A stretch of DNA of 64,000 nucleotides from Centruroides vittatus (lineage: Eukaryota). The stretch lies in the NCBI RefSeq assembly GCF_030686945.1, contig NW_027122668.1, positions 124,099-188,098 of the forward strand, written 5' to 3'. The notes under the pieces were generated by a model. It was not told where the DNA came from and ran no database searches. It saw only the letters and a list, made by a program, of their open reading frames with translations. Positions 17,887 through 48,200 of the stretch are shown in pieces; positions within the stretch are counted from its first letter, which is position 1, and each line of letters opens with the position of its first letter. Made by a program: the position numbers and the translations under genes.

Positions 17887-18191
17887 CAGTAGAGCATCGA
17901 TTATCCGACTTAATTGGGGACTGGGGTTGGTCGGATAACTGAAAAGTCGGATAACCGAAAAGTATGAAAAAATACATTATTAGTATAGTGTATTAGGCCT
18001 GGTTTAAATACTAGCCTCCCTTTCATCATCGAGCCATGCTGCCAGCTAAAACATGCAAAAATTTAAAAAAATAATATTAAAGTAGCCAAGACAACCAAAT
18101 ATTGTAGCGCCACATCACTAGCGGACATTTGAATTTGCCGACTAGAACGCGGTCAGTTAACCGATAAGTCGGATAATCGATGCTCTACTGT
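17887..18191. mobile_element. Tc1/mariner-like MITE (TIR cagtagagcatcgattatccgac, TA duplication), present in copy 1 only
   Basis: ta|cagtagagcatcgattatccgacttaattgg ... ccgataagtcggataatcgatgctctactg|ta. At the matching position copy 2 carries a different, unrelated insertion (41716..41810 and neighbouring sequence). Confidence 0.55.
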
Positions 18192-18455
18192 AATTATATA
18201 ACAAATACATTTGGGTAGATTGTTTAGTATCTTTACTCATATATTTAATTATTTGTATGATTAAAAACTTAGTTGATTATGGAAGTTACTGTGTTAAAGC
18301 TATAGAAGTTTTTAAATATTTTCTGTTGTTGACCAGTGTATTAAAATTATAAATCTGTACAATCCAAATAAAGAAGTTTTTAAATTTAAATCATACAAAA
18401 TTTATAAGAAAATTGAATTCTTTTCTAATGTTTTCTATATTGTTTAGTTGGCGAA

Positions 18456-24400: not shown

Positions 24401-27400
24401 TTTTTCTAAAACTAACCCTTAATACTAAATGTACTCTAAGAAAGGAAGATTGCTACTTTTTGCCCCTCTTCAAAGGTGGCAGATAGGACAGAACAAAAAG
24501 TATGCGGGTCATACAAACATCTTCCTGTTATTGTGAGGGGCCATGTGGAAACTTCTTACATACAATACATGCTTGTCTTATCCTCAGTTCCTGAGGGTTT
24601 TTACTTGTATCCAAATTGTCGGTCACTCTTTTGAAACTTTCAACTGGTCAAGAATGCCAACTCAAACACTGGGAATTTCAAGGTTTCCACTCAGTTATAA
24701 CTTCACCCATCTACTTGGGCACCGGACACTATAACATCTCTCTTCTTTCATCATCATTTCTCTTCAAACACCAGCTCAAAAGTGACCTTCCTTTGCCTTG
24801 TACGCCCTCAGATAACCTTGTACTCATTATACTGATTATTTCAGGAAGTGGCTCTCACCTCTAAGAAGGAAGAATTAGAGATTAGCAAGTTCTAGAAGGG
24901 AGAAAGAACAGAGTAAGAAGAACAAAGACGAAAAGCGACATACAGTGGACAATCACAATATGAATAAAAATTACAAAATATTTTACATAATCAGTAGTTA
25001 CTAAAATCCACTAAAAAATAGATAACATTATTTTCTAATTTCTCTCTTATTCTGAAATTATAATCTGAAATAAAAGCATTAATTAATGGAACCTAATCTT
25101 GACACTCCTGTAATGTAAGCCTACTGCCCACTCTACCTAAGTCTCAAACTGATACTGACTGTAAGCAATCGACATTACATGCGATTTTGTTACTTCATTT
25201 ATTGAATTCTTTATGCTACTGAGAGAATTTATCTTTTTCTGCATTACTTTATTGTAAGTAGGAATGGAACTTCACAATTCTGCATTCCTGTTCTTACTCA
25301 CTATTTTGTCGGTGCAAAGAACCAGGCAGCAGATCCATAAAAATGGATCTGATTTCAAACTTTGTAATTTGATACACAGTACTCCTGAATGATAAATCAG
25401 AATGTTTTTTTCTTTAAAAATAATTTACAAAATTTAGAAGTCAAATGACATTTTTAAAATAGAGATATCTTTTTGTATTCCACAAAACTTGGCACTGTGG
25501 TCAACTTTTAAATTCTTAAATATCTACTTCTTATGGAAACTAAATATATATATTTTTGGCCCTAAAGTTGTATTGGAAATTAATGGAAACTGAAGACAGC
25601 CTATTTAGGGCCGAAAACATTTAATTTATAAAAAAAAAAGAAAGTCTTGGATTCCATACAAAGTGGTTACTTAAGAATTTTAAAAAATCATTTGCTTTTG
25701 CATTTATATCTTAAAATTTTCTAAAATTTAATTATTTAATAAATTTTTAGGAAGTGAAACAATTACAAGTTGTTCCTGCAAACTGTGCTCTCAGAGTTCG
25801 AGCATTAAGAGATTTTGAAGATGGTAAAATAAAAAGAATTGCAGGAGACGAATGGCTGTTTGAGGGTCCAGGTATTTAGGTTCATATTTACTAGACATAT
25901 AGTTAGACTTCATAAATTACCGTTAATCAATAAAATTATTTGACTTTGTATTGTTTGTCACACTGAATAAACCACAAGAAAAGACAGAAAAACAAAATTA
26001 ATTTAAAACAGATGTAAATTTTTTAAATGTAAGATGTGTTATCATTAAAAATAACTATAAAAACATTGAGACGTTATAGAAATAAGTTTTATTTCCTCAA
26101 TATTTACTTTCTAAGTAAAAACTTAATTTGTGAAAATCATTTTTCAAAGTTAATCACCAGAATTTATTGCTTTATTTTATAGGAACTTATATACCTCGTA
26201 AAGAAGTAGAAGTAGTAGAAAAAGTTAAAGCAACCGTAATCAAACCAAATCAAGCCTTAAAGCTACGAGCAAAGACCGAAATGATCGATCGTGATGGAGT
26301 AAAGCGTGTAATGGGAGAAGAATGGTTGATTAAAAAAGTTGGTGCTTATTTACCAAGAGCACATGAAGAAATTGTTGATATTGTCAATGCATATATTCTA
26401 ACAGAAAAAGTAACTTATTTGGCTTCACAAAATTTATTTGGTTTTCAACTAAAATTTATATATATGTTAACCTTTCTTATGTACTGAAATTTGTATTTTC
26501 TTTAATATTAGGAAGCGGTTCACGTTCGTGCAATTAACACATTTGTTGACGATCTGGGCAACACTCGAAAGAATGGAGAAGAATGGCTAGTGAAAATGAC
26601 AGATGTCGACACCTACATTCCAGGAGTTTACGAGAAGGTTGTAGGAGTAATACCTATTACGGCGCTTTCAAATCGTCAGTACTGTGTTATTCTAGATCCT
26701 GTAGATGAGAGCGGTAAGCCACAGCTAAGCCAGAAATTGTTGGTTAAGGTAAATTATTTTAATTGTAACTTAATTTTGATTTATAGTAATTTACGAAATT
26801 ACAAGTTTGATTTTTGTATAAATTAAGTTATTCAGTTCATTGAGAGTTCAAATTCTTGAAATTTTCTACATTTATTATTTTATAATTATTTTATTACTAA
26901 AGTCTATAAGCATTTTTATTATTATTTAAATCTAAAATTTTATTAGAAATTTATAATCTACTGAAACAAAGTTACTTACAAAAAAATTCTTAATTTTCTC
27001 ATTTTAATATTGTGGGTGCGCCTGGAAGTGGACAGAGTTGCACCTTCCTTTTTGTCGGCTAATAGGTCGGTGATACCTGCCCATGTCAAGATGGCGGTTC
27101 GGATGGATTACGCGTTATGCATTCTTCGCGAGTGGAGGAAGCGGATGGGTCCGACGATAGAGCGGCGCCGATACTCGAATAAATGACATGAACAACGTAT
27201 AGAAACAACAACAATTTATTAAGACTAGAGCTAAAGGTACAATAGGGCGAGCTACAGTCACCTATGGTTTAGATACGCGGAGGGAGAGTTTACACAAATT
27301 TGGGGAGTCATACCTCGTGGTCCGAATCTGTCCTTTCTCTAGGTCAAAGTATCTTCGGCAAGGTATTCCTTTCGTTCGCCGTCGGAACGCGCACACACTG

Positions 27401-30400
27401 TATAATCGACACTCCGTAACCGACCCCCTTTCCCGCTCTCGTCGTCCTTTTATTGTCTCTGGTCACGTTTTGCTTTTTCACCAACCAGCGTTATTTGAGT
27501 GTTGTTCCTCATGATTCATGTTTTCTCCATGGATCCAAACAATAAAACATTTTATGGCGAGTGATTTTGGTTCCGGCAGGTTTGAATTTTCACAATATTT
27601 TATACATATATCATGGCATAAATATAGTTTTCCACAGTAAACTTAATTTAGAATTCCAGTTAAAAATTGATTTTAACCAAATATAGTTTTTAAATTATCA
27701 AAATAACTTTTCAATTTTGAATACAGGTACTCCTCACTTTACGATCGAGTTCCGTTCCGATGACTACATCGTTAAGCGAATTGGTCGATAAGTGGGGAGC
27801 TTGCTCCAGGAGTATAGGATCGTTGTAAAATTATCCAAATTATTCAACAAACTTCAAATTTATTCATAAAAAGACTATTATAGTACGCTATTAGCATATT
27901 ATAGTACTATAAGACTATTATAGTATGCTTAGTGCACATGTCACCATTTGCCACTGAACGACACTCAAGCTGAGAAAGGGGATTCCCTGAATTGCAGGTC
28001 GAAACTCGATTGGTCGTAAGTGAAAGTGGTCGTTAAGCAGATAGGTCATAAAGTGAGGAGTACCTGTAAAGTTAAGAAAATAGTTAGCAAGAATGTATGG
28101 CTCCACTTCATCAAAATATGGAAACTGAATAGCTCAAGCTCAAAATAGCTGCTTTAAAGTGACTTTCTGGGCTGTTCACTATGCTTTCTCAAATTTCTTT
28201 CATCGTCACTTTCGTGCAGATGCTCAGCTTTTCGAGTTTTTCGAGCTTTTCGAGTCAGACTTACCAATGGTCATTTTCCTATTTCTTAAACTGTTTAGAA
28301 AGTAATTTGGTGATTATACAATCTGGTGCTCGTGAAGTTTCGCACTCGTATTTCTGATGTTTTATACCACGTAACAGTATCTTTTCGATGCTGGTTCATA
28401 AGTGTAGAAATAGCCATTTTTGACATGTTACTGTAGTAATAACAATAATAATAATGGGCAGTATGACAGTAAAACATTATTAATTTACAGTTAAAATCTT
28501 TTAAAGTGTATGTAATAACCTTGTTGAAATGTAAAGAATATAGAAATTAACTTTCTACAGTTCATACAGTAAAATTTAAGACAAAATTTATTGGAAATTT
28601 TGCAATTTAACCGAATTAAAATTTTTATTTCCTGAAATACATTTAATTAATAATTGATTTTAAAAAACTTAGTTAAAATGTCACAAAGTTTTTCCTATTG
28701 TGAATTGTCAGATAGAGTTAATATGATACAGAAATAATTAATTTTTAGAAATAAGTTTTTACTTTATATTTTTGAAATCAATATTTTCAAATCAAAATTT
28801 TAAAATTTCTATAACTATAGACGATTTTATTTAAAACAGGGAGATAAATCATTCTTTTTACATCCTGGCGAACATTTGGAAGCTGGTATTCAAGAAATAC
28901 ATGTGTTGAGCGATAACGAAGGGCTTGTTTTACGTGCAAAAGAAGCTTTTGTAGATACCACCGTAACACCTGTAAGAAAGACTTTTTTCCTCGTTTATCA
29001 GTTTAATAATCATATTAACTATAAATGGGTATAATTTTACAACTTTGAAAACTTTTTATTTTAAAGGCAGTTCAGCGTCAGCCAGGAGATAGATGGATGA
29101 TCAGTGGTGCAGCAGAATATATACCTCCAAACGAAGTAGAAATTTTAGCGAAAAGAAATGCTATTCCTCTTGATGAAAATGAAGGAATATACGTTAGAAA
29201 TATTAAAACTGGAAAGGTAAGAGGAAATTTTTAAAAATTTTAGATAAATATGTTTTATCATTATAAGAAAGTTAGTTGGCTAAAAGTTTTATTTCTTTCA
29301 GCTATATTTTAATCTCAATAATAATGATAGAATGTACCTGTACATATTCTATTTAATAATAGATATTATGATAAATATTTTATTAACTGGATAAATAAGA
29401 CTACAATATAATATGAATTAAGAGTTCTGCCTTGGGCATGCGAGGCCATGCAGAGCAGTTTCTCCAGTGTGGTGGAGTCTGTAAACAAAAAGTCCAACTC
29501 CAGGAAATTTGTATGGTGTGACTCCTACCTCAGTTTTTTTTTTTTAAAGTAACACTAAGTAGATTCCTTTTTTAAGAAAGACATCATGTGCAGTGCCTGA
29601 ATATTTTATTTAACATTTCTCTATAAAATGTTTTTACTAAAATTTGATGATGGTAAGAATCAAAAAATGGATATAGCAAATTTACCTCAAAAACCTTTAG
29701 AGTACATAAACACACATCTTAATAGCCAAAAGAATTCCACTTTTATTAGTTAATTATGAAAAGTTGATTTTAAATTTAATTATTTTAAAGAAGAAAAATT
29801 AAATACAATAAATGCAAAAAATAACGATTTGATGACTGACGTAATAGCGAGGTTGAGGCCGAAGTTTTAAATGCGAAAACGTGTAAGAAAACGGACGTTC
29901 GGCACCGCTTTCCTGTAAGCCTAGAAGTTTTACAATGGTGTTTGGTGTCAGTGGAATCACGCTCGACATTCCAAATGCCATTGTCAAACTTCTAGGCTTA
30001 TCGGAAAGTGGCACCGAACGTCAGTCTTACACGTTTTTGCGTTTAAAACTTCTGCCTCAATCTTTTTAATAAATTGGTTCATAAAATAGTTTCTCCTGCT
30101 CTGGCTAGTTGACTAAACTGAAATATACAGTAGAATTTAAAGAAAAATATTTTTTTTTTCCAAATTTTGTCATCTTGGACCAATGGGTGCAGTCATACCC
30201 TGAGAACTTAAACCAGTGAAAAATAAGCTGGAACAATCTTATTAATTAAATTTTGTAGATTTCTCCTTTCTTAGTTTGTTGCAGTTAGATTCTGATCTTT
30301 GTTTTACTTTTTTCATTGATTTTTCTATTGACTGTTTTAAGACCAAATTATGATATCAAAGCTATAATAAATTACTCAAAACCAATAGAAGGGCAGTGAA

Positions 30401-33400
30401 AAAATTAATCAATCAAATTAGTAAAAAAAAAGTTGATATCCAAAGTAAAACATCTAAGATGTAAAAAATTATGGCACCCAAAATGAAAGTCAAATTTTTT
30501 TTTCTTGGGCTTCTCTTTGGTAAAGATGAGCTTAGCTTTTCGAAGCGATACCACATGCATTTACTTTCCAGGCGCAATCCCACGACTAACTACAAGTAAT
30601 CACTTGTAGTTAGTCGTGTTAGATTAATACAGATTAGTGGTGGAAATAGTGATTTTTATCCACTTGTCACTGGTGGGCCGTAGCTTTTACTAATTTATTT
30701 TCTGAAAGTACACACATCATGTATGAAACGACCTTTATGATTAATATCATTTTGATATCTAAATTAATTGAAGAGTCCATTTTCTAAGAAATTTCTTTAG
30801 ATACTAATTAAAAAGTGTATTTTTTTTTTTTTTTTACTTCACATTTTACAAATAGTAAACTTTGAGGTTGGAGTCAAAAGAATTTTACTGACTCCACAAC
30901 ACTTGTTTCTCCTCCTATTTTTGAATGTCCACTTGATATTTATACATGTGTAAATCATCTTATTTCACTACCAAATAAAATCTTTGTAATAATGCTAGTG
31001 ATAACTTTTAAAAAATAAAGCAAAATAATCACTAGTATTATTAAAAATAAAAAATAATTACAGACTTTAATAGCTCACTAGATAATATATTTAAGTATTA
31101 ATGTTTATATTATTTTTAACAAAAAAATGAAAATAGGTTCGTGCAGTCTGTGGAGAAACGTACATGATGAATCAAGATGAAGAACTTTGGGAAAAAGAGC
31201 TGTCGCCAAATGTCGAATCACTTTTGTCGGCTCATTACGATCCGATGGCCGATCGTGGACGGTGGGCAGATAAACAGTCTGCTACTTCTGCTGTTTCCAG
31301 AGATAAAACAAGAGTAATAACTTTTCGTGTGCCACATAATGCAGCGATTCAGATATATGATTACAAAGGGAAAAAAGCACGGTAAGTTGAAAATTTCACA
31401 AAAATACAGTAAGACATTATAATTTTTTTTTTTTTTTTTCCAATTTCTAAATTATTTCATATTTAAATTATGATTTAAATGTATTTCAAATTGTTTAGAA
31501 CAATATACTGAATATTACACAAAAATTGTTTGTAATTTTTAAATTTCATTTTCAAAATAGTGTGGTTTTTGGTCCAGAATTGGTTATGTTGGGACCGGAC
31601 GAACAGTTTACGCAACTAAGTTTATCAGGTCACAAGCCAAAAAAGCCTAATGTGATTCGGTCTTTGTGTCTTCTTCTGGGACCAGATTTTTGTACTGATG
31701 TCATTACTGTTGAAACAGCCGACCATGCTCGCTTACAACTTCAGCTTGCATATAATTGGTAAAAATTTCGGATAATTGTATAAGAAAATCTGAATAGTGT
31801 TTTTGATACTTTGATGATTTAAATTAAGAATATAATTGTTTTTAAATAATTGAAAATAATTTTATGTCGATAATTATTGTTATTTATTATTTAGGCACTT
31901 TGATGTAAGTCAAAAGGATGACGCGACAGCTTCTAAATTATTTGCGGTACCAGATTTTATTGGTGATCTTTGTAAAGCCGTAGCATCTCGCATTAGAGGA
32001 GCCATAGCATCGACTAATTTCGATGACTTTCATAAGGTTAGTAATTATTGTTGATGAAACACCGTTAATAATTTTGAGAATCCGATAACATTTTATGGAA
32101 TTGTTAAACAGAATTCTGCTACAATCATCAGAGCTGCAGTTTTTGGCTATGATTCTGATAGAAAGATCAGAAATAGATTAATCTTTCCACAGAATAATTT
32201 AGTAGTAACTAGTGTAGATATACAAAGTGTAGAACCTGTAGATCAGCGAACTAGAGATTCTCTTCAAAAATCAGTACAACTTGCAATTGAGATAACAACT
32301 CAAAGTCAAGAAGCAGCTGCCAGGTAACAAAGAAATGATGATTAAAATGCTTTATTAAATGTATATATTTTTTGTTTATTAATATTTTACATACTTTATA
32401 GACATGAAGCAGAAAGAAGAGAACAAGAAGCCAGAGGAAAATTGGAAAGACAAAGAATTTCCGACGAAGTAGAATCCGAACGAAGTCGTAAGGATCTTTT
32501 AGAATTACAGGCAGCTAGCATGGCAGTAGAAAGCTGCGGACAGGCAAAGGCAGAAGCAAAAAGCAAAGCCGAAGCCCTGAGAATTGAAGCAGAAACAGCC
32601 GTCGAACAAGCTAAATTGAAAGTTGATGCTATGACAATTGAAGCAGTATGAATCTTTTATGTTCCTTTTAATAGTTTTTCATTTATTGTAATAATCATAA
32701 TAATAGAAAAATAGAAAACTGAAATCATTTTCTAATATATTAATATTAAAGTTTCCTTTTATTTCTATTACATCAGATAGTTTTCAAACATTGCATTTGT
32801 TCAAATTTTTTTTATAGTGAATAATTTTGACTTTAGATATTTTCCTACTATCCTCTATTAGACAGGCTTGAATTAAACTTTATAAATACATTGAAATAAT
32901 TATTTAAGAAATGTTTTTAAATTGCTGCTGTTATATTTAAATAATTTCTTAAAAGGAAGCAGAATTGGAAAGATTGATGAAGGCCAGAGATGCCGAAATC
33001 AGTTATCTTCGCGAACAAGATGAATTGCAGATTAAGAAATCAAAAGAATTGGCAGAAATAGACGTACAGAAATGCAAGGATATAATAAGTGCTCTTGGAC
33101 CCGACACAATTCGTGCCATAGCTCTGGCAGGACCAGAACTACAGGTAAATTGATACGATATAAAATAGTTAATAATTCATAGTAGAGCTTCAGTTTTAAA
33201 ATAGTTTATCATATAAAAACAAATATCAAAATGATATTGCCAAGAAGTTGTTTCTTAATTACTTAATGAAATATTTACAAATATATAATTGACTACAATT
33301 TTGAGTTTACTTTTGAAAGTCTGTCTGTTCAGTCTGAGTTCAAGCTGAAGAAATACACATGTATGAACACCTATGTGTAAACTACATGCATTTCAGCTTT

Positions 33401-33620
33401 TCTAGTTCTTTATAATAAAATGAAAAGTTTATTTGCAAGAAACTCAAACAATATTGTCATAAATTCATTTTATTTTCAGGTAAAGATTCTTCAAGGACTT
33501 GGACTTCATACAACTCTCATCACTGATGGAAATTGCCCCATAAATTTATTTAATACTGCACAAGGATTGATAGGAAATTCCTTATTGGAACCACCCACTA
33601 AAATACAAAAGGTCGAATGA
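18456..33620 (+). CDS. MVP: Major vault protein, copy 1: intact 14-exon gene, 858 aa
   Basis: The translated exons match the MVP family end to end: [33 protein letters not shown]; [15 protein letters not shown]...[22 protein letters not shown]; [23 protein letters not shown]; [14 protein letters not shown]; [16 protein letters not shown]; [19 protein letters not shown]; RVVFGPELV...[32 protein letters not shown]; IRGAIAS..FDDFH; [33 protein letters not shown]; LLELQA.SMAVES.G.AKAEA.S.AEA.RIE; ALGP.TIR..A.AGPE.QVK.LQ.LGL..TLITDG..PINLF. Exons: join(18456..18598, 21464..21659, 25751..25871, 26183..26409, 26512..26748, 28840..28971, 29067..29216, 31137..31381, 31561..31758, 31895..32036, 32112..32323, 32402..32645, 32956..33144, 33480..33620). 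All introns are GT-AG with consistent phase. The total is 2577 nt, or 859 codons including the tga stop at 33618..33620. An acceptor, tgtttag|, immediately before the ATG exon implies an untranslated exon further upstream. Confidence 0.88.
19829..19856. repeat. (TTAG)7 microsatellite, present in copy 1 only
   Basis: The run tagttagttagttagttagttagttag is absent from the matching position in copy 2 (about 44990). Confidence 0.6.
20994..21420. mobile_element. Tc1/mariner-like MITE (TIR cagtagagcgtcgaaaagtggaac, TA duplication), present in copy 1 only, 43 bp upstream of MVP exon 2
   Basis: Filled site: aaataaa ta|cagtagagcgtcg...cgacgctctactg|ta ctataattt. The empty site in copy 2 (about 46735) reads aaataaatactataattt. 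The exon 2 acceptor is at 21463. Confidence 0.6.
22504..22727. mobile_element. Palindromic 225-bp MITE (same family as 6626..6854) in MVP intron 2
   Basis: tagtgaggttgaggcagaagttttaaacgtgaaaacgtg ... its reverse complement. The duplicated image is at 47816..48038. Confidence 0.55.
23479..23735. mobile_element. hAT-like MITE (TIR cagggccggcc, 8-bp duplication tgtgcaga), present in copy 1 only
   Basis: tgtgcaga|cagggccggccttctcg ... gatggccggccctg|tgtgcaga. Copy 2 (about 48910) has the empty site gactgtgtagaagttaattc. Confidence 0.55.
27011..27599. other. Copy-1-specific insertion of about 590 bp (GC-rich, unknown nature) in MVP intron 5
   Basis: Copy 2 (about 52110) reads ttaatatt|ttatacat without interruption. 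Copy 1 has gtgggtgcgcctggaagtgg...ggtttgaattttcacaatatt inserted between the direct repeats aatatt. It has no recognisable TIR, tail or coding signal. ORF 27317..27514 is unsupported. Confidence 0.4.
29844..30062. mobile_element. Palindromic 225-bp MITE (same family) in MVP intron 7
   Basis: tagcgaggttgaggccgaagttttaaatgcgaaaacgtgtaag ... its reverse complement. The duplicated image is at 54352..54570. Confidence 0.55.
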
Positions 33621-35473
33621 TTTTTCAGTACGTAAATATAGTAATTCACCACCTCCTTAACAAGTTACTGAATATTTCTTTGTCTGCAGGAATAAGGAAC
33701 TCGCTAAGGCCAATGTAAAATTGGATGACTGCCATTTTCATTCCTTAAAATAATTACTGTTACTTGCAAGTGTTAATGAAGTTTAAGACTGTGTGCAAAC
33801 TCAGATTTGACATTATTTTGTTGTTGAAATATGAGCATTCTATTTTTAATACTAATGATACAAATTGTTGTTTAAAATCAAATATATTTTTCTGCTTTTG
33901 CAATTTCTGTAAAATTAAACAGCTTTTCAAGTTTGTCTACATACCATGTGAGGGAAATTGATGTGCTTATAACAAATAAAAATGTATGCAGATGTTGATT
34001 ATTTATTTATCTAAATACATCTGCTAGTAGAATATATATATATATATTTATTCTACTAGCAGGCCAGTGTTGCCCAGGTAAAAAGTAATACAAATAAATA
34101 TTAAAATTTAAGCATTGCATAATAATTAATGGGGCTTTATTAGGTTTAATGCATTATTATATAATTTTCACTGCATCAAATTGAAATTATAGGATTCCAG
34201 AGGATTTCATCCATAACAATTACCCCTGCAGACCCAGCAATGTTTGGGACCCACAATTGGAAGAAATTTTAAGTTGGTAAGAAAGTGCAGTGAGATTTTA
34301 CATTGAAAGTTCTGTAAAGAATATTTTGTACATTTCATTACAGTAGCAAATCTTAAGGTGTTTTTTTGTATATGTAAAATTATCTATATCTACCCAAATG
34401 TTGGTTATTTGGAAAACATTATTGTTTGTATTGTTTCCAGGGAAAATAAATTTATTTGTAAATAATGTCATTGCTAACAAACTATTAGTTTAAGATGCTA
34501 AACTAGTTGATAAGTTATCTTTGGGTTCTGTAAAACTGACAAAGACAAGAGGATGCAATGTTATAACCAGTTTTCTTTTAATGAAAACAATGTTATGTGA
34601 AAATATGCCTTCCTTTCGTCTTCACAATAACTAAGTCCCAAGAGACCTATATTCCGCAACTTTTTTCTAAATTCTTTCCACCTTGTAGACATCGTTTTTT
34701 TTCCTCTATACCCATTGTGGGTTTGACCACACCCACAATGGAGACCAACAAGGGGTGAGGGATGGGATCTAACATGAGTTTAACTAAATGGGAAAACTCT
34801 GGGGCATTGCTTGCCCAGATTCAAGCCTGTCCCCAGAATGTTAGGCTTTACTGCCTTGGCCATCCAACCATCTCATGTTTCTTAACTATCTATGGGAAAC
34901 ATGTATATGCCGAAATTGGTTTTAACAGGAACGTAGACAAAGCATTCTCTCTAATAATGGTCAGATGGACGAGGTAGTTAAGGCATCAGCCCACTGCTCT
35001 GGGGATCCAAGATTGAATTCAGGTGGTCAAAAAAGATTTACTCATGGATCAGGTAAAAGATGAGCTCTTCAAAAAATTTGCAAGGTCCCTACTGTTTTCC
35101 ATTAAAGTACTGCAAGTTAGCTTATATTTTCTGCAAGATCCTAGTAACTGAAAAATTTGGTTTGATCAGTCAGATGGCTTAGAAGTGTACAGAGAACATA
35201 CAGGCAACAAATACACTATTTCTTATATGTAATTAAAACATAATTAGCAAATTCTGAATTATAAGTCAATATTGAAGATGATGATAATAATTAATATAAT
35301 GTGTAGCAAATCAACAACAAGAAGATCTTATGGATTTTATACATTATCAATACTACACCTTAAATTCTTGTATAGAGTTAATTTTCTTCTTTTCTGTATT
35401 GTTGGCATGCCATTAACTTCTCATAGATGTGCTAAAAAATTTCATTAGATAATGCTAATAAAATATTTGTATA

Positions 35474-35805
35474 CAGGGTGGGCAGCGAAAACGAAACGGC
35501 AGAGTGTTCGTGTTCGTCCAATCAAATCGCTCGGACAGGTCGATTTTATTCTCGAGGGAACATCTTATGCAATAAAGTTTTTGCAAATCTGAATATTAAC
35601 TAAACAAACATTTTTTTTCCGAAATAAATGTTTGTTTACTTAATACAAAATAAATGAGTTTTTAAATTTTTTTGTTGTCTGTTGTATTCAGAATCGCAAA
35701 AACATTATTGCAAAAGATGTCCCCTCGAGAATAAAATCGACCTGTCCGAGCGCTTTGCTTGGACGAACACGAACACTGCCGTTTCGTTTTCGCTGGCCCA
35801 CCCTG
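35474..35805. mobile_element. Foldback, mariner-like MITE (TIR cagggtgggcagcgaaaacgaaacggcagagtgttcgtgttcgtcc..., about 110-bp arms, TA duplication) lying just inside the 3' edge of duplication copy 1
   Basis: ta|cagggtgggcagcg...cgctggcccaccctg|ta. The arms are about 110-bp inverted repeats around an AT-rich centre. The identical element closes copy 2 at 59996..60329. The two copies share only the 6-bp TATATA after the MITE right TIR (35806..35811 and 60330..60335) and then become unrelated. Confidence 0.6.
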
Positions 35806-35814
35806 TATATAAAC

Positions 35815-37951
35815 TTATATAGAAAAAAGATATATTGCTACTAATGTATTCTATAATAGAGAGTAACTTATAAAAACCTCTACAATTATTTTATTTTCAA
35901 GATAAATTGTTACATAGAAATGATTTTCATTCATTATAACTATAAGTATTTAAAAATTACTAACCAGTAATGACTTTTCCAACAAATCTATTGACTTGAA
36001 AATTCTTCTAGAGATTAATAGTTTTCCCAAATTTTCTCTGGAATCTTCAGATAAAAATTTATTATGGTTTTTATAAATAAATGAAAAAACATATTAAAAT
36101 AATTAATAAATTAAAAGTTTTACTTAAAATGGCTGATAGTATTTTAATTAAAATTATGTATACACTGTATTTTTTAATTGGCCTATCAGTGAACGTTTTA
36201 ACTGTTTTACATAATTCTGCAGAGACGTAGTCTCAATAAAAGGGTGTCTGTGCGAACAAACACTGTTCTGGGTGATTAGACATGGCGGCAAGAAAGACCA
36301 CTTAGTTTTTTCAAATTTTTACCTAATAAGCAGTCGTAGAAAATATCTTGTGGGCAATAACAGACGAATTTATCTGCTAAATCATTCAATCCCGCATCAT
36401 CCAAATCTCGCAGAAGTTCTAAGAGTTCATCGGCGTATAATAGAAACAATGATTTAAAAGCTTCTATAAACCTACGAATTAATATATATTCCTCTTCTGA
36501 TTTCTTTCCTGAAAGATCATCAGATAAATATTAAGATTCGATCATAAAATTTTTGTATTAATTAATTTTTGAATCTTTCTTACCCAATTTCGAAGACTTG
36601 CAATATTTTAGTACTGAAATGTAACTGTTAATTCTGAGTTTCTTGAATTTGTTACAACATGGTATTAAATATTTAATTATTTTAAAGAATTTTACGATGT
36701 CATCGTCTCCTTTCTGGTAGGGGAATAAGGTAAAATGTTCGAATTTGAACTTATTGTCAGCATATTTGAATGCGAAGTCGAGTAATACGAATTTGAAAAA
36801 CTTCACTTCATCCAGAGTTCTCTAAAAATTATTTAACGGGTTAATTTATCAATTGTTTTTAAATTTTACGAGTAAACTTTATACTCACCAAAAATTCGGA
36901 ATTTATATATTCTGTAGAGAATTCATGAACAAAAGATTCAACGTTTTCTATCATACTCATTGTGATAAAACATTTCATTTTATTCTTGTCATTCAGGCGC
37001 AAAAAATAGGAGCTTTCGGACATTGCCTAAAAATGAACCTTACCTACTTAAGATTATTTATTAAATTTTTGCATACTTATTATGTATAAAAATATTACTA
37101 AATTCTAAAATATACTCATGTATAATCACACGATAAGAGAGTATTGAGATATCCGCTTTCGAATTTGGTCCTTTTTTTGAGCGTGTTCGTCATTCGATTC
37201 ACATTCAAGCAAATTAAACCGATTCCTGAGAATAGTACTGAAATCAGCTTGATTTACATGGCTATGATGTTTGGAACATGCAAAGCACTTCCCATTATAA
37301 AAATGAGACAATCCGGATGAAACTCGAATCCGGACTCTAGGAGTAAGCCGATGCCCTGACTACAAGGCCATTTAAACATATTTTAGCATTCGGTAGAGAA
37401 ATTATAAAACAAATTCAGTTACTAGACTTAATTTGCAACTTAATTGCAAAAAACCAAAATGATGTCATTATTACAAATGCTAGCATATCACGTAATTTGC
37501 AAATAATGGAGAAAATGTCTAATGTTGAAGCAGAGATAAAGAATTAATAACATTATTAATATATAACTTAATTTAATTTTAATTAAAATAATAATTTTGT
37601 GCGAAATTTGGGCTATGATAGGTTCGTATACTAATGAAGGAATTAATATTATGGAAGTGCCTCTAGTTGTTACATAAGAAATTTTTTAATTTCAAATTAA
37701 TACGTGTGACATGAATAACTACAGATTATATCTGTCAACTACAATATTAAAATAGGAAAACTTACAAAATATATTTTTCTTCGGAATTTTTTGCATCGAA
37801 GAATTCCAGGAGATCGAATGGATTCCAAATTCGATTTCTTAATAACGTATAAAAGTTTTAAATTTGCTTCTGTATTAACTTCGGATTCATTTTCAGAAAC
37901 ATAATTTTTTTCCTCGGATTCCGTGTCCGAATCGATGCTCTCCTCCTCCAT
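35815..37951 (-). CDS. Unknown-family protein-coding gene, 6 exons, 287 aa, acidic Ser/Glu-rich N-terminus
   Basis: Reverse-strand exons join(37766..37951, 36889..37026, 36584..36821, 36323..36508, 35965..36044, 35815..35850). Every intron is GT-AG (donors gtaagt, gtgagt, gtaaga, gtaaaa, gttagt) with matching phases. The total is 864 nt, or 288 codons including the taa stop at 35815..35817. Protein: MEEESIDSDTESEEKNYVSENESEVNTEANLKLLYVIKKSNLESIRSPGILRCKKFRRKIYF / AMSESSYFLRLNDKNKMKCFITMSMIENVESFVHEFSTEYINSEFL / RTLDEVKFFKFVLLDFAFKYADNKFKFEHFTLFPYQKGDDDIVKFFKIIKYLIPCCNKFKKLRINSYISVLKYCKSSKL / GKKSEEEYILIRRFIEAFKSLFLLYADELLELLRDLDDAGLNDLADKFVCYCPQDIFYDCLL / GDSRENLGKLLISRRIFKSIDLLEKSLL / NTLVAIYLFSI. 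I do not recognise the family. Confidence 0.55.
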
Positions 37952-38759
37952 ATCATCTTTAAAATGAAATCAAATTGATTATAAATACGTATAAAAGATT
38001 AAGCAGAAATACTCGCATTGGCCAAGTTAAAAACAACCAAAATTTGAATTGTAATGTTTGTGTTTATTTCTTTCTTCCCAGTCAACCACTGCTAGTTGCC
38101 TGGAAAGAAATACTGTTTATACTAATGTCACCGTGAAAACTCTCCGTGCTGGTAATCTGCAATCAAACTATACAAAGTTTAAACCTTGTATAGTTTGGCA
38201 GTGAAGGGAAGTGTATTAACACCTAAATAGCGACTCGTGAAAGTTCTCCCGGGAGGCACCCCTCCTTGACAAATTGCCACGTGTTGCCCACCAAACTAAC
38301 AACGTAATTAAATGCCATACGGGTTTTACAAGTGGACAATCGTGTTTTGAGGAATTGAGGAACAAAATTGCTTGTATTGGCCCCCTCTTCCACTCATTTC
38401 ATTTTGTCAGTCTAATTTCATAACACCCTGTAAAATGTAAGAGTTTATAATAAAACATTCCTGAAAAATCTTCATTATTCGCCTTACTCAACTTTAAAAT
38501 TTCGCTATTTTAGTTTTATATTTACGTTTTTAGTAATTCGGTATCTAATTAGTGTTACTTTTTGGCCTTTTAATTTTTTAAATAATAAAATTTTTTTTAA
38601 ATAATAAAAAATTAATGTGTGTTTTGTGTATATAATTATAATTTAAAAAATGTAAATGCTAGTAACAAGTAAAGCCGGATGCACACATGCGGCGCGGCAA
38701 GGAAAAGCGGCAGAATGACGTCACTTTTAATTATTATGCCTTTGTGTCCTTAATTATAG

Positions 38760-39006
38760 CTTAAATTTATCTTTGTATACTAAGTACAGTACATTTATCA
38801 ATTAACAGGACTTATTATACTGGAAAATTATGGATGCAGATATTTAGTCTTACTGATCAGAAATATTATAAAAATAAAAAATATAAAAAAACTAAATAAA
38901 AAATATTATTTCTGATCAGTAAGACTAAATATCTGCATCCATAATTTTCCAGTATAATAAGTCCTGTTAATTGATAAATGTACTTAGTATACAAAGATAA
39001 ATTTAA
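38760..39006. repeat. Near-perfect hairpin: two inverted arms of about 105-110 bp around a 35-bp A-rich loop
   Basis: Left arm: cttaaatttatctttgtatactaagtac(agtac)atttatcaattaacaggacttattatactggaaaattatggatgcagatatttagtcttactgatcagaaatattat. The loop follows, then the exact reverse complement. The only mismatch is a 5-bp agtac bulge. The flanking direct repeat gacgtcactttt lies at 38707 and 39007. ORFs 38866..39123 and 38978..39175 are artefacts of the palindrome. Confidence 0.7.
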
Positions 39007-39142
39007 GACGTCACTTTTTCTCGCCGCAGAAGTCGATTTTGTGCCGCTTTTCTCGTGCTGCAAAAGTTGGTTGAATTCTACTTTTGGCGGCGGTCGCCGC
39101 CAAGAGACGTTTCTATCAGCCAATAACAGTTCGTCTGGTTGT

Positions 39143-39250
39143 CACGTGAGAAAATACAACCACGTGGTGTTTTAATGGCGGAAAGTTCGACGCGGTTAAC
39201 CGAGATAACAAACAGAATGAAGAGGAAAGGATAATAAATTTGGTAACATT
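39143..39250. repeat. Second copy of the 105-bp CACGTG-containing repeat unit found at 1..107
   Basis: gtcacgtgagaaaatacaaccacgtggtgttttaatggcggaaagttcgacgcggttaaccgagataacaaacagaatgaagaggaaaggataataaattt. Confidence 0.5.
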
Positions 39251-40641
39251 CTAGGAGGGGAAGGGGGGGTTAACCCCCCCAAACGATAGACCCCCTGTGC
39301 GATCAAAAAATGTCTAATGAACCACACCCCTACGGGCGACCCCTCACGAGATATAGCCCCCCCAAAATCGGGCCGCGCGAGATCGCGGCGCGCGTCGCTC
39401 AGCGCGCGCGTCTCCCTGCTAAGCGCTCGCGTCGCTCAGCGAACGTGATAGCGATATGAAGCACACGCGACAAAACGTACGTCATTTCCGGTCACGTGAC
39501 TCCGCAAAATGGAAAATATAAAATCGTTTATATATAGTCACTTTTGAAGGTTAGTGTAGAATCTGTTTTCTTCGCCTTTTACATCGGCAGTTAGAATGTA
39601 TAGTTCTTTTCGCTTAGCAGCGCGCCAGTCAATTGACGTGATCTAACTCACGTGTATTGGGTTGATAATCGGTTCAGATAGCCTTTACCCATTTGGGTAA
39701 TCCTATTTCACACTGAGTACGATTATATGTCGGTGGCCGACTCGTAAGGACCAATCGTAACGGGTGTTAGAAATCGTTTTAATATGATCTTATTTCGTTT
39801 ATAAATTCTTACGAAAAGTCTAAATAATACCATCTTTTCTCGTTACGTCGATAATGTTTTTTAATATAAGGAAATGGTTAGTAAGTTTACAAGCGGTTAC
39901 AGTGGCAGTCGCGCGCGATATCCTAGCAAAGCGACGCGAGCCGCGACCTCACGCGCGATACTCTTAGCAGAGCGACGCGCGCCGCAATCTCGCGCGACCC
40001 GATTTTGCGGGTAAATAAAAATGCGTATTATTTTCGTTAAAGTTATTTATTAATAATTATCTACGTTATTGAAATATTAATATAGCCATAAAAATGGTTG
40101 GAATTCGAAACCAACGAATAAATTATTGCTTTAAGTAATCTTTATAACAGAAACTAAAAATAGTATCGATATTTTAATTTATTTTATTATATACTATAAT
40201 TAATATTAATAATCGAAGACTTAGAAATCGTTTAATTCTATTAAATTGTCCTTTCTTTTAAACTGCTCGAATTGCCCTTTCTTTTTCCTTTACTCGGATC
40301 GAGTCGATTAAGCCTAAAGCTGTATTAAAAGCGGTATTAAAGGTGGTCGCTCTCGCTCGTTTACCTCGCTTTCGTTTCGAAGAATAATTGGTAAGGAGGG
40401 GGGACCCCCCAAATTATAGACCCCCCTGTGCGAAAACAAAGGGAAAAACAAAATTTTGGTATATTACGTAGGTGTCACGTGACCGGGATGACGTAGGTAT
40501 AGTCCTCCCGATTCGATGGCGCGGCCCGATTTTGGGGGGGCTATATCTCGTGAGGGGTCGCCCGTAGGGGTGTGGTTCATTAGACATTTTTTGATCGCAC
40601 AGGGGGGGGTCTATCGTTTGGGGGGTTAACCCCCCCAAACG
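39241..40641. mobile_element. Composite non-autonomous TIR/foldback element with about 120-bp G/C-homopolymer-rich terminal inverted repeats and CACGTG palindromes
   Basis: The left terminus 39250..39370 (gggggggttaacccccccaaacgatagaccccctgtgcgatcaaaaaatgtctaatgaaccacacccctacgggcgacccctcacgagatatagcccccccaaaatcgggccgcg) is the reverse complement of 40500..40640. A nested second inverted pair (39370..39440 against 39900..40010, the cgcgagatcgcggcgcgcgtcgctcagcg motif) lies inside. A direct partial copy of the terminus sits at 40380..40440. CACGTG occurs at 39493, 39650, 40478 and 40651. ORF 40414..40638 reads through the TIR and is spurious. Confidence 0.5.
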
Positions 40642-41715
40642 TCTTCACCCACGTGGTATTCGGGAGCTTTCTCGTTCTCGTCTTTCCTCCTTCAGCTCTG
40701 ACTCAAAAGTGACTCTTTGTCTTGGTTCTACCCCTGAGGGCTGCATACAGTCCTATTGTCCATAATGGGGTCACCTATTGTTAAGCCGTTAAGCACCGGT
40801 CAGGGAAGGGTTCCAGGAAGTAAAGATAATATGAATAGGAAAGAGAAGGAAAAATATATTCTAAGTTAAAATAAAATATAACTATATATTACACAAATGG
40901 CATTTAGCCACAATATATCTACTGACCAGGTTGTCATTTTGACATTTTAAGCATTAATATATAAATTTCAGTAATATTTTAAAGATCATTGACTGAGATT
41001 TTATATAAATAATAAGGTATTATTTTAATTGCATGTCTTAACAAATATTTTAATAATTTCTTTAATATATTTCAATAATAATAAATCTAATGTTTATGTA
41101 AAAAAAAAAATTGTTAAGTATGATTTATGCTGTTTACTTTTACGCATGAAATCAAATATGTATTTTTAGTCGGGAAATATATTTTGTAATGCTTGTTTTT
41201 ATATTACTTTAATGTTGTTAATCATCATAAATTTTAATTATTTAATGTGTTTATCAGGTTTCTTTGAATTACATTAGTAATTATTCTAAAAATTTATTTA
41301 ATTTATTCTAATTTTTTAAATGTTTTTCAGTAAATATTAATTTTTTTTAATTTAAAAAAGATTTTCTTCTGATTAAATGTAATCTTAACAGTTTTATTTG
41401 ATATAAGAATAGTGATTCTGGATTTTAAGATTATGAAAAATAATTGCTTCAATAAAGTATGTTTTAACAAATTTTTGTGCTAGAAAGGGATGAAAGGTTC
41501 TCCTAGTGTTGAAGAGAAATTAAAGGAATTTTTCATCTTTTTATTAGAAGTTGAATCCTATAAACTTTTAGGACAAATTATACCTTTGTATAATAATTAA
41601 AAGACCTTAAAAAGATAATAATGTGAAATGATTTGAATTATTAATGTTTAGAAAGTTAAAATTGCTTTCAGTCTTTCATTTTACCTCAAAATTAATTAGA
41701 ACTATATAGGCCTAT

Positions 41716-41810
41716 CGTATTTTACGGACTATAAGACGCACCTTTTTCTTCGAAAAATTGCCTCCAAAATTCAGGTGCATCTTATAGTTCGTAAAATACG
41801 GTAATTGTTA
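41716..41810. mobile_element. Small palindromic MITE (cgtattttacggactataagacgcacc ... ggtgcatcttatagttcgtaaaatacg), copy 2 only
   Basis: A perfect inverted repeat with about 30-bp arms. It sits at the site where copy 1 carries the unrelated Tc1-like MITE 17887..18191. Confidence 0.45.
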
Positions 41811-42287
41811 ACGTATATAATTAACTTTATTATAATATACAAACATAACTTTGTGGTAATACAAACTATTGTGCCTCCAGGTCTAAGGGTCACCACAGCT
41901 AACATACAACTGCCTGGAGACAAAGGAACATGACAAAGGTCAAAGGTGAGGGGTTGCCTAACTAGGTCAAGGGGCAATTCGGTGTGGGTTATCTCCTGGA
42001 GGTTTATATACCTAACAATAATTATATAACAAATACTAAATAATATCTTTGTATATCTTTACTCATATATTTAATTATAATTATTTCTATGAGTAAAGAT
42101 TTAGTTGATTATGGAAGTTACTGTGTTAAAGCTATAGAAGTTTTTAAATATTTTCTGTTATTGACCAGTGTATTAAAATTATAAATCTGTACAATCCAAA
42201 TAAAGAAGTTTTAAAATTAAATCATACAAAATTTTATATGAAAATTGAATTATTTTCTAATGTTTTCTATATTGTTTAGTTGGCGAA

Positions 42288-45200
42288 ATGACCACTCCAA
42301 AGCATAATCGTAATGAGGAGAGTATTTATAGGATCCCACCGTATTATTATTTACATGTTTTGGACCAGACATCAAATGTTACAAGAGTGGAAGTCGGTCC
42401 ACAGACATATATTCGCAAGGAAAATGAAAGGTATGAAAGTTAACTTAAATAAACCTGAACAAAGCTATAATAATCTCATAGTACAAGTTATATATGAAAT
42501 TAAATTGTAGTATTAAGTCTGCACCATATTAATTTTAAGCTGTAATTAATTGATTTATCAAACTGTTTATTTGTGACTGTCGGCCATATTGTATATATAT
42601 ATTTTATTGTATATAGTTGTAATCCTATCTTATTTTTGCAATTTCCTCCTTTTTCCTTTGTCTATTCTTTCTTAAACTTTCCATGACTGTTATCGCCATG
42701 TGGCTGGATTAGACGTTCCGAGAATCGGTAGGGACAATAACAGGTAGTGTGGCCTGGGGAAAAAGTGGCTAAGAGAGGGGTCACTTTTCGACTAGATACG
42801 AAGAGAGACGGACGGCAAGAGCGAGGCTCGATCGTGATTTCCGAGAGAGGAAAGAAGTGCGATAGTCGAGTGAAGAGCCGAAATATAGAGACCGGCATAT
42901 TGGAGAACCCCAATAATTGAGAGAAGAAAGGATAGTGAAGAAAGCCACTATCGTCGGATCCAGGTTCTACACAAAGTATCAATACGTATCCGCCGAAAAA
43001 GAGAAAACCCCGGGTGAATCATCCCTTCATTTCTTCTACCTTTCTGCTGTCCTATCTTTCTTATTTTTCCTTAATATTAAGAGTTTAGATTTAAGTTAGG
43101 TTAGTCAAGTGTTTACGAGGGACCGATTGTTACGCGCTTAAAAATTAACACACCTCGAATTGTAAATCAGTTGGGATTCCTTAACAACAAGAACCTTATT
43201 TGTTCTAAGTGGAATAAAGGAACATTGTTTATTATTGTAGTCGTTGCAGTGTCCTTTTCTGTACGTTTCATTCGCAGGCCATACTGCCACACTCTTATAG
43301 AACACCACATATTCTTAGAATTTTGAGTTATAAAATATTTCTTTTACTAATGATTGATTTTGAAATTTCCTTTTGCCAATATACATGGTATGATCCAAAA
43401 GTTCGGGGAATGCAGTAATCTATGACAACAAAAGCATGTATTTGAAGTTACAGCGTATGAAATGGATTCTACCAACTCACCTCTACGTGTTCAGGTTAAT
43501 TTCACCCATGTCATGTGATTAAATCGTGAGCGCTGCTGGTTTTTCCGGAGATAGTTACCTTTGTCCTGCGACGTAATCAAAGTGGAGTTTCAAGAACAAC
43601 CTCCAACATTTCGACTTCACCGTGACCTTTCACCGTAGAATCACCATACACCTTTCTTAGCAATTTTAAAATCTCCGTAGGTGTTTTCCCTAAACGCTGC
43701 CAAAATTTAATGTTGGAGGTTGTTCTTGAAACTCCACTTTGATTACGTCGCAGGACAAAGGTAACTATCTCTGGAAAAAAACAGCAGCGCTTGCAGTTTA
43801 ATCACATGACATGGGTGAAATTAACCTGAACACGTAGAGCTGGTTTGGTAGAATCCATTTCATACGCTGTAACTTCAAATACATGCTTTTGTTGTCGTAG
43901 ATTACTGCATTCCCCGAACTTTTGGATCGTACCACGTATATACTTTTTTTTCTCTTTACTATTCAATGCATATTTATTCCAATATACAATTGTAAATCAA
44001 AAACTATTTATTTTTAATACATTAAAATTATTATTCTTTACTTTTATTAATGTTCTTACTTTTAAAAATAAACCATGTAAATAATGAAATACAGTAAAAC
44101 TTCTGTAACTTGAAGTTTTTTCCTGCCTCTTTCAAGTTAGACAATTCAAATTAGAGAACAATACTGATAAATGCCAATTCCAAGTAGATTAGATCTCTTG
44201 CATTTTATATAAAGAATCTTTGATAGTTTTTTGTTTTAAACAGCTGTTTAATGCCTTTTCATCATGTTCAATGTAGCTAACAGAATCAGTTTTTTGCAGG
44301 TAGAGTACATCTTATTGAGATAAAGCAACAGATCATCTCATTTTGGACTGGAATGTTGTCTATAAATGGGTGTTGGACAGTATATACAACTAACTGTCTG
44401 AAAACTTCATGAAAATCAACAATTAGGATCACTTCAGACAGAATAAATATTAAAATTCAAGTCAGGATCAAGTCAAATATAAATCTAAATTGAACCAAAT
44501 ATTTCACAAGATTCTAAAAAAAAAGTTACAATAGAACACATGTAAATGTCACTATAGAATATGAAAAATATAAAAATATAGAAATATAAGAAAAAAAAGA
44601 CTTACTTTTGAAAAGAATAAGATTGTTATTGCAATAAATTTGCACTTCCACAACAACCTAAATCAACTTTCACAAGGTTTTGGTTTCTTTTCTTCCCATA
44701 CTTGTGGTGCCATCTACAAAAGTTCTTCCCTCTTTCTTCTCCTGTATATTTCCATTTTATGGGTAGAAGACAGAACTAGAGTTAAAATGGATTCTAAGCA
44801 ATGAATTCTGTAAAACTGTAGCTCCTCAATTAATTAACGAACATTGAATCTACTAATTAAAGTACCTTACAATAGAATATTACTTATATAATATAAGAGT
44901 ATAAATAAAACATAATTTTATTATCATAGTGATATTTTGATAATGATAAGTATTAGGTGACAAAATCGAGTTCTATGGTCTTAACCAAACAGTGACAGAA
45001 CTGAGGGAGCAATTGTAAAAGGTGCAGTGCGAAAGGAAGACATAATGCATGGTCCAATTAAACAAATTTAATTTTGTGCTTAAAAATATATATACAGTTT
45101 CTTTAAGGTTTCCCACTGTTGTACAATTCCGGCTACCTTCTGATGGTTTCAACGTTACAGGCGGTTCAGCTAGTTGATCTTATCCCAACTACTAACCAAC

Positions 45201-48200
45201 AATGGTTCGTGTCTAATAGTCTTTGGCTACTTTGTAACTAAAATTTTTATGTACGGTGCAATTACCGCTAGTTAACACTAGTCAAGTTGGCTACTTTTTA
45301 AATTGTAAATTCCATGTATCTAACATCCAATTTATTCTTTTTATTATGTGTTACCTTTCAAATGTCTACTAGACACTGTGGAATAGCCTTTGCCCTTTTA
45401 ACTGTCTTCATTATCACAGTATGTCGTGCACTACACTCCAGCCATCTCAATACTGTATATCTTAATATTATTGTAAAATGCAACTAGCATTATTTGAATT
45501 AACAACAAAACTGGTTACTGACTACATCGATGTACTTATGTTACTCTATATTCTTATAATATTGTATTGTATTCAAATTGAACCAACCTCTTGTTGGAAA
45601 AGTACTCCCATTTTGTATATACTGTTAATTCTGTACACATTTGTATTCTATTGCATCTTGTTTTAATTGAATAAATGGCGATGCAGATGCCCATGGGGTC
45701 CCTTGGGGGCCTCGTGGTTGCTATTTTCACACTTTCCTATCTTTCTTTGTTTCTTCTTCCACCTAACTTCTCTTTTCTTATTCTCTTCTTTCCGCTTCCA
45801 ATAGGGCTAAGTCTGATGCTAAGTATGGATAGCCCCCTTTTCCTTTAATCCAAAGTCCAAAGTCTCTTGCACGATTCCTAATCTAACTTAATCTAATAGA
45901 AGGTGGATAGAAGAAGGGGAAGTAGGAAGAATAATAGAATAGGGGGTACCCAATTTATCGGCAAGTAGTCAAAGTATTTCTTCGTCTCGACTTCCGAGTC
46001 TTGAATGTTTTATTCTCTTGCAGATCGGCTGTCTCGGAGTTCTCCTCCAGATCTATCAATATACTTCTTTCTTGATCCGTTCTCTATGGTCTCCTTTTTC
46101 ACAGTGCTTGTTGGATTCCACTTACGAACCTTGCCACCACACATCCATTACCTCTTGTGTCCGGCCCAAGAATGTTTCTTGGAATTTCTATTTTCCCCTC
46201 CAGCCTCGTCGCAGACTATTGTTTTCACTCTACCTCCTGGTGGGCTAGGGGTGAGTCTGAGTTCTCAGAAGTTCGAAACAAAGGGAATTGGAAGGAAGGA
46301 TAAATTTATAGAAATAGAATATAAAATTAAATTAAAAACTATACAAAATAGAATGGTGTACAGCCACATGATATTTGTGAGGGTGACAAAAATGAGGGAT
46401 GAGTGTAATCCAGTCTCTATGAAAAATTTGATCACATTATGAATTTTTTTTATTCTAGAGTTTAGTTTTGATGTTACAGGAATTCCTTGACTTTTGGACA
46501 ATTCCCTCCACCTCTTTTTTTGTACATTATATTTTGATACCTCTGAGTTACTTTTCTTAGATAAAATTTGGATTTTTATACATTTTCAGCAACAAAAAAA
46601 AACATTTGAGAGATTGTGCAGTGACTTTCTACTGATCTAGATTTTTCTAACATAAAAATCAATTCATTTTGTAAAAAATTACAGTAGAGGCCATCATAAT
46701 ACCATTTTGTTTTATGTAAAATAGAAATAAATACTATAATTTTTAAATAAAATTTTATAATTAAATATTTTCAGAGTTATTTTGGGACCCGAAAAAATGA
46801 TCATTGTTCCTCCAGGTCATTATTGTGTGATACAAAATCCTGTGATAAGAGACAATGATGGAATTATTCAATATGATCTATATGGTCAAAGTAAACTGCG
46901 ACATGCTGACTTAGAAATAAGATTACAGCAAGATCCTTTTCCTTTATATCCTGGAGAAGTTTTGTTTCAGGTCAGAAGATATTAAATATTCAATTTTTCT
47001 TAAAAATTATTTTAAGTTTAAGCACATATTAATTTATACATCATAATTAATTTTATAACTTTATTGTACATTGATAAAGAAAGTACAGATTCTATCAATA
47101 TTTGATTTATATAGAAGACTAAGATTTTATTGTCGTGCTATCTATATCCTGGCTGATTAAGTATATCTTACCAAATTACATATCATCTATATATTTAACT
47201 AGCCAAGTTACAGTTTGATAATAAACCCAATTTTATCATTTAAGTAATAAAATCAATTATGTAGTGTATATTTTTGATATTTATTAATTAACGTCAACTA
47301 ATTTTAAGTGGATGAATAAAATAACTTTTTATACTGATATCAATAAACAATTTATTAGATTATATTATCAGAATTCATCTTTGTCTTCATATTACTCAAT
47401 TTTTCATTTTGAAATAGTAATATTTGTGTTCTTTAATTTTAATTTTGCAATTTCATCAAATTTAAGTTACATTTGTGCTATTGTATGCTTGTAAAACAAA
47501 TATTTTTTTCAAGAATACACTAACAAAACATATATAAACGTTTTGAAAATATTTGTGTTAGATGTTTAATTTTAATATTATTCTTAATATACATTATAGT
47601 CATTCTTTACTTATTAGTATATTAGTGTTCTCCAGAAATTTTTACCAGTGAGATGAAATGTGTGAAGAGGTTCCAAAAATGGGTTTAAATTAAACATTTA
47701 TTATAGAAACTTATTAAAACAAAACTAGAGGAAAAACACCTCCATTGTTAAAACGGATGAAAGATCGGATTCTTTGTGCTAGTCATATGAAACTGGGCAA
47801 GGAAATAAATACTATTAGTGAGGTTGAGGCAGAAGTTTTAAACGCGAAAACGTGTATGTCGGACGCTCAGCGCCGCTTTCCGTAAGCCTAGAAGTTTGAC
47901 AATGGCATTTGGAAAGTCAGTGGAATCATGCTCAATATTGCAAACATCATTGTCAAACTTCCACGCTTATAGGAAAGTGGTGCTGAACATCCGACGTACA
48001 CGTTTTCTCATTTAAAACTTCGGCCTCAACCTCACTATTAATGTAAAACACAACACAATAAATGTAAACGAATGTTCTCCAGTAGAGATGGACCTATGAC
48101 AAGGCACTCGTATAGAAGTAAATAGAACATAGAAAAATTTTGGAAAGGGGAACGGTTAATTATGAAAGGAGACATTGTGTCAGGCCATTAAAATTCTAAG

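Follow-up and report, generated by a model that had tools for sequence, protein, structure and literature searches.

A candidate unannotated paralogue of a Centruroides-restricted gene in the spacer between two major vault protein copies of Centruroides vittatus

[quoted passage not shown] Isoform X1 holds about 2.5 tandem copies of a module, roughly 190-230 aa each, and the two isoforms split at T130|E131, immediately before the sequence ELYENSHFL. The gene lies on the same 575,258-bp contig as the window (the whole stretch of 64,000 nucleotides that was analysed), and its accessions (067-069) are two to five numbers apart from those of the nearby genes for the major vault protein (MVP, 071) and OXSM (072). 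Judging from the accession order and the shared contig, it is probably located just past the window's right end. The locus considered in this work, on the minus strand at 35815-37951, resembles this family in its module (31% identity over about 190 aa), in the motifs FFKxVLLDFA and CY(D/C)P..F..C, in the intron position at the module start, in contig and neighbourhood, and in having neither a Pfam domain nor a signal peptide. However, it contains a single module where the relative has about 2.5, its acidic N-terminal exon is unique and its C-terminal tail differs, no protein of its locus is present in the protein collection, and it is about 70% diverged. A second class that invites comparison is that of orphan genes, with which the locus shares a short product, low structure-prediction confidence, a codon usage unlike that of housekeeping genes and the outcome that searches of 1.84e9 representative proteins and 5.8e9 clustered ones gave no homologue from beyond the genus, although, in contrast to singleton orphans, it has a paralogue. 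Finally, it is reminiscent of unprocessed pseudogenes, being an unannotated, intron-retaining paralogue beside a decaying duplicate (MVP copy 2), but it shows no disabling mutation in its frame, splice sites or start codon.

An earlier note, made from the letters of the sequence, had described at this position a minus-strand gene with six exons and five GT-AG introns, and the model was reproduced exactly: the spliced frame was recovered base for base, comprising 864 nt and encoding a product of 287 aa (Table 1). Introns 1 to 5 measure 739, 67, 75, 278 and 114 nt, respectively, their donors read GTAAGT, GTGAGT, GTAAGA, GTAAAA and GTTAGT, all acceptors are AG, and the TAA stop codon occupies positions 35817-35815. 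The exon-1 ATG has an in-frame TGA 18 nt upstream and a G at both -3 and +4, and an alternative in-frame ATG is found within exon 2, at 37023. The location between the two MVP copies was likewise corroborated, as the gene model falls within a unique 5.1-kb spacer (35812-40928) and fills the 2.1 kb of it that are proximal to copy 1. Only 2 bp separate its stop codon from a palindromic element resembling a miniature transposable element (MITE-like), into which any 3' UTR would extend, and the duplication boundary (35811) is 4 bp away from that codon.

Table 1. Coordinates of the gene model and of the adjoining element (positions within the window)
Feature	Position	Strand	Remarks
Exon 1 (predicted)	37766..37951	-	62 codons; phase-0 GTAAGT donor, perfect match
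Intron 1	37027..37765	-	739 nt, GT...AG
Exon 2	36889..37026	-	46 codons; conserved module begins here
Exon 3	36584..36821	-	238 nt; motif FFKFVLLDFAFKY
Exon 4	36323..36508	-	186 nt; LLELLRDLD...CYCPQDIFYDC
Exon 5 (predicted)	35965..36044	-	80 nt; frame and GT-AG sites consistent
Exon 6 (predicted)	35815..35850	-	11 codons plus TAA; predicted from frame consistency alone
Palindromic MITE-like element	35466..35813	.	348 bp; self reverse-complement 81% over 353 nt

The consistent phases of the five introns had been taken as strong intrinsic evidence for a real gene, a notion that failed against a null model. The longest ORF from ATG to stop was sought by dynamic programming in 72 other 2.3-kb segments of the window, on both strands, with a ceiling of five GT-AG introns (50-800 nt each) and a minimum exon length of 30 nt. 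ORFs of at least 864 nt were obtained in 36 of the 72 control segments (mean best ORF, 882 nt), and 18 of the 72 still reached 864 nt when donors were restricted to those matching at least 4/6 GTAAGT positions; this null is slightly inflated, in that a few of the top-scoring segments overlap real exons (MVP and the 339-aa ORF at 4041-5060). At the target locus itself, the same search produced a spliced ORF of 933 nt on the antisense strand. A codon-usage log-likelihood trained on MVP and OXSM did not set the target apart from stop-free non-coding stretches: the target scored -0.16 bits/codon, versus -0.26 +/- 0.17 for the non-coding ORF null, and 26% of the null ORFs scored as well. Because half of the control segments yield equally long GT-AG spliced ORFs, the exon-intron structure by itself does not exceed chance expectation. 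In a 31%-GC genome, consistent GT-AG phases are no evidence for a gene, and the homology search alone separated signal from noise. The published C. vittatus assembly has a GC content of 30.85% (PMC11304958), in line with the window.

What lifts the locus above chance, as judged by protein similarity, is an independent homologue. An exhaustive phmmer search of 1.84 billion (1.84e9) representative proteins returned exactly one match, isoform X2 (XP_067140069.1), with E = 3.3e-13, and the idea that the product has no homologue was not borne out, since the annotated XP_067140067/68/69 paralogue lies on the same contig. The BLASTP comparison that the earlier note had proposed matched this one paralogue over target residues 59-247 at 31% identity and 53% positives (E = 5e-21), with isoform X1 it aligned target residues 56-247 to residues 124-310 at 31% identity and 52% positives, and a Smith-Waterman shuffle test of the whole target protein against the paralogue gave z = 24.7. 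The signal could be resolved by exon by means of 1000 shuffles each against isoform X1. Exon 2 (versus residues 134-165) reached z = 14.6, its observed score being attained by 0 of the 1000 shuffles, exon 3 (versus 183-245) z = 12.0 and exon 4 (versus 278-310) z = 6.2; therefore, each of the three is significant alone, and their order is colinear with that in isoform X1. In tblastn, isoform X1 matched exon 2 at 50% identity over 34 aa and exon 3 at 36% over 67 aa. Exon 1 (z = -1.3) and exons 5 and 6 taken together (z = 0.8) showed no homology signal against isoform X1, and a by-eye alignment of the basic half of exon 1 with the paralogue was rejected (shuffle z = -0.8). Thus, a real gene-derived structure is present, and the model as one gene stands in part: exons 2-4 (residues 63-249) are backed by homology with the annotated protein, while exons 1, 5 and 6 are not, and the acidic exon 1, which had been singled out beforehand, gains nothing from this comparison.

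The module boundaries and motifs support the same relationship. The target junction F62|A63, at intron 1, aligns exactly with T130|E131 of isoform X1, and an intron position at the module start appears to be common to both genes, the paralogue's boundary being deduced from its isoforms. When the target is aligned with both paralogue modules, nine residues (F88, K89, V91, L92, D94, F95, A96, C208 and Y209, target numbering) do not vary, nor does the exon-3 motif FFKFVLLDFAFKY, and the motifs FFKxVLLDFA and CY..P/I..F/H..C/S follow each other in the same order in target and paralogue. The target has no second module, given that tblastn of isoform X1 on the whole window matches exons 2 and 3 only. 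A profile built from the three modules retrieved isoform X2 alone, and a word-indexed search with the single target protein among 5.8e9 clustered proteins gave no match; the detectable family would hence consist of two loci, the target and the XP_067140067 gene.

Considering these alignments, we favour as probable the reading that the locus is an unannotated, intron-containing and highly diverged paralogue of a Centruroides-restricted gene, and that it is functional. The frame has remained open over 187 homologous codons despite about 70% amino-acid divergence, while at about 31% GC some 8% of random codons would be stops (an estimate from base composition), which together point to long-term coding constraint. 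In addition, the ATG and all five GT-AG pairs are intact, and the 287 codons are free of stops and frameshifts. Given the extent of the divergence, the duplication that gave rise to the pair is old. The target would correspond to a single module, encoded by exons 2-4, versus the roughly 2.5 tandem modules of its paralogue; it would be transcribed and translated, exons 1, 5 and 6 would belong to it, and its translation would begin in the acidic exon 1 or else at the exon-2 ATG. More tentatively, the two genes may represent a fast-evolving family of two members, restricted to Centruroides, whose building block is a helical module not described before; the target would be a functional single-module member of it, missed by annotation and maybe absent from the syntenic C. 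sculpturatus site. On the favoured reading, this is a probable and rather ordinary annotation gap, whose closure would give the C. vittatus annotation one more probable gene and would provide orphan-gene studies with a linked pair of very divergent paralogues; the biological stakes of the locus are small.

Among the alternatives, the one that survives best is a real gene with other ends, which we regard as quite possible though short of probable. In this case, translation would start at the exon-2 ATG (37023), like isoform X2, which begins only 6 residues ahead of the aligned exon-2 start, and the coding region might end by read-through at the exon-4 or exon-5 donor. The lack of homology signal in exons 1, 5 and 6 and the weak exon-5 acceptor (ctgaag) agree with such an arrangement, and so do the short read-through extensions: past the exon-4 donor, a stop is met after 15 further codons, and past the exon-5 donor, only VSNF* (4 extra codons) is added. 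However, the GTAAGT donor of exon 1 is perfect and in the right phase, this exon is the sole ATG-initiated phase-0 segment with a donor matching at least 5/6 GTAAGT positions in the 3.9 kb upstream of exon 2 (37027-40900), a long stretch of coding sequence precedes the corresponding junction in isoform X1, and a weak alignment with the paralogue (E = 0.81) crosses the exon 4/5 junction.

A less likely alternative, although one to be taken seriously, is that the locus is an unprocessed pseudogene: an old duplicate of the XP_067140067 gene would persist as a silent relic, having lost its activity recently through a regulatory change, before any stop or frameshift arose. The first argument in its favour comes from annotation. 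A collection of 15 billion sequences contains no protein of the target locus, the exact 287-aa sequence included, while the RefSeq proteins of both flanking genes are present, which indicates that the NCBI pipeline apparently made no call; thus, the locus is probably not annotated as protein-coding. The missing call is consistent with little or no RNA-seq support for the target. Transcriptome-derived matching proteins are absent from the collection for the target and equally for its annotated paralogue. The setting points the same way, as the spacer is rich in transposable elements and adjoins an MVP copy that is decaying through a 1-bp insertion, and so do the single module, versus about 2.5 in the paralogue, and the codon statistics, which are no better than those of non-coding ORFs.

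A further argument for a relic was derived from C. sculpturatus, in which 41.6 kb of the syntenic scaffold KZ494992.1 (103997-145566) were compared and showed no trace of the spacer or of a target homologue. The order on this scaffold is OXSM, a full MVP, a partial MVP (intron 7 to exon 12), a gap of 2,218 N, the equivalent of window positions 34036-35473 and then that of 61536 onwards, the alignment ending at 35473, the inner edge of the MITE-like element. The missing spacer could reflect a true absence, loss by recombination between copies or a collapse in an older short-read assembly. Against the notion of a relic, the 287 codons carry no stop or frameshift, the splice dinucleotides and the start codon are intact, and most of the divergence behind the 31% identity must have accrued under coding constraint. 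As for the scaffold itself, its partial second MVP copy (27745-34072 within the compared 41.6 kb), next to the 2,218-N gap, is annotated as the 339-aa protein XP_023240240.1, and it may have arisen by a genuine partial duplication or by a collapse of the two copies through mis-assembly.

It is very unlikely that a transposable element, inserted between the MVP copies, brought the gene along as cargo or encodes it as one of its own parts. The spacer does carry a foldback element (38788-38984) and a further element flanked by terminal inverted repeats (39264-40636), and the MITE-like element abuts the stop codon. Nevertheless, the gene is present as a single copy within the window and has one homologue in 1.84e9 representatives, whereas a mobile family would be multi-copy; Pfam detects neither a transposase nor any other domain in it, the gene itself lacks bracketing inverted repeats and, with its only relative at 31% identity, a recent capture is excluded. 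A frame assembled by chance from ORFs of AT-rich non-coding DNA, in spite of the equally long spliced ORFs in half of the controls and on the antisense strand, retains almost no probability as an account of the locus, being effectively refuted for exons 2-4 by the library-wide match to an annotated protein and by three independently significant exons colinear with the paralogue, and it is possible for exons 5-6.

The statement that the product belongs to no recognisable family was upheld by every search directed at it. Neither the target nor isoform X1 gave any Pfam match at E<=10, and the best hit of a PDB sequence profile search had E = 0.84. The structure-prediction search that had been recommended earlier was also carried out: AlphaFold2 yielded low-confidence models (pLDDT of 43 from the single sequence and 36 from a 3-row alignment), and Foldseek with the better of them versus PDB returned only noise (best E = 0.3, TM below 0.25). 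In composition, residues 1-29 are acidic and Ser/Glu-rich (12 D+E, pI 4.05), with several Ser/Thr that have an acidic residue at +3, residues 30-62 are basic (10 K+R, pI 10.75) and include the cluster KKFRRK, and helices are predicted for the core (residues 63-249). The protein has no transmembrane-grade hydrophobic stretch (maximum 19-residue Kyte-Doolittle value, 1.19) and no signal-peptide-like N-terminus, this end being acidic. From these predictions, the product would most likely be a soluble, non-secreted, mainly alpha-helical intracellular protein. A nuclear protein-binding role, suggested by the acidic tail and the KKFRRK cluster, would be a low-confidence speculation. Two other assignments were considered and rejected. 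A secreted scorpion venom peptide or protein would have a signal peptide and a cysteine-rich mature chain, whereas the target has an acidic N-terminus (12 D+E in 29 residues) and a low hydropathy maximum. Kinship with the major vault protein is contradicted by the lack of a Pfam match and by the MVP guide, which matches the two MVP copies only and not the 35.8-38 kb region; nothing ties the target gene functionally to the surrounding vault proteins.

The spacer is bounded by a tandem segmental duplication of about 19 kb, defined by comparison of the window with itself (copy 1, 16817-35811; copy 2, 40929-60335). Going from 5' to 3', the copies become more alike, with 86-91% identity at first, then about 95% and finally 98.8%, and the 5' part of the single C. 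sculpturatus copy is 88.9% identical to copy 2 versus 81.4% to copy 1; this pattern suggests an old duplication with 3' gene conversion. MVP exons were located with a human MVP sequence, used only as a guide. Copy 1 has 14 exons, with its CDS starting at 18456 and its last exon at 33480, and its product of 858 aa matches exactly XP_067140071.1, 'major vault protein-like [Centruroides vittatus]'. In copy 2, exon 8 (55658-55903) differs from its copy-1 counterpart (31137-31381) by a 1-bp insertion (TCTGCTCGTTTCC versus TCTGCTGTTTCC in copy 1), which leads to a premature stop after 458 aa. Once the insertion is removed, the two MVP copies differ at only 2 amino acids; the copy-2 product, either truncated or corrected, was not found in the protein collection. 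Copy 2 looks like a young pseudogene, unless the insertion is an assembly error.

Each duplication copy is terminated by one copy of the MITE-like element, the second of which lies at 59988-60335; its arms are 93 nt long, with 92% complementarity. In its half that lies upstream of the gene, the spacer has a higher G+C content (39%) and contains the two other elements mentioned above, namely the foldback element, with 82-nt arms of 99% complementarity, and the one of about 1.37 kb, whose inverted 88-nt arms are perfect and whose termini read GGGGGGTTAACCCCCCC. Neither Rfam nor tRNA scans gave any hit in the 33.5-42.5 kb region. Elsewhere in the window, SINE-like, G+C-rich dispersed repeats were observed at 5550-5983, 60423-60725, 62422-63037, 6626-6854, 22499-22726 and 47816-48037, and these repeats yield spurious ORFs of 90-115 aa on both strands.

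Other genes were noticed in the window. The product of an intronless ORF (8152-9219) shows 100% identity with C. vittatus OXSM (XP_067140072.1, mitochondrial 3-oxoacyl-ACP synthase) and 99% with the C. sculpturatus protein. The intronless 339-aa ORF at 4041-5060, on the plus strand, has many hydrophobic stretches, is similar to the target in codon usage and finds no match in Pfam at E<=0.1, and it may be another lineage-specific gene. At the opposite end, the plus-strand segment 63361-63708, which runs past the window end, represents exon 1 of a C2H2 zinc-finger gene (zf-C2H2, E = 5e-6), whose C. sculpturatus counterpart is a 3-exon model of 232 aa; this gene probably stands between the window and the XP_067140067 paralogue.
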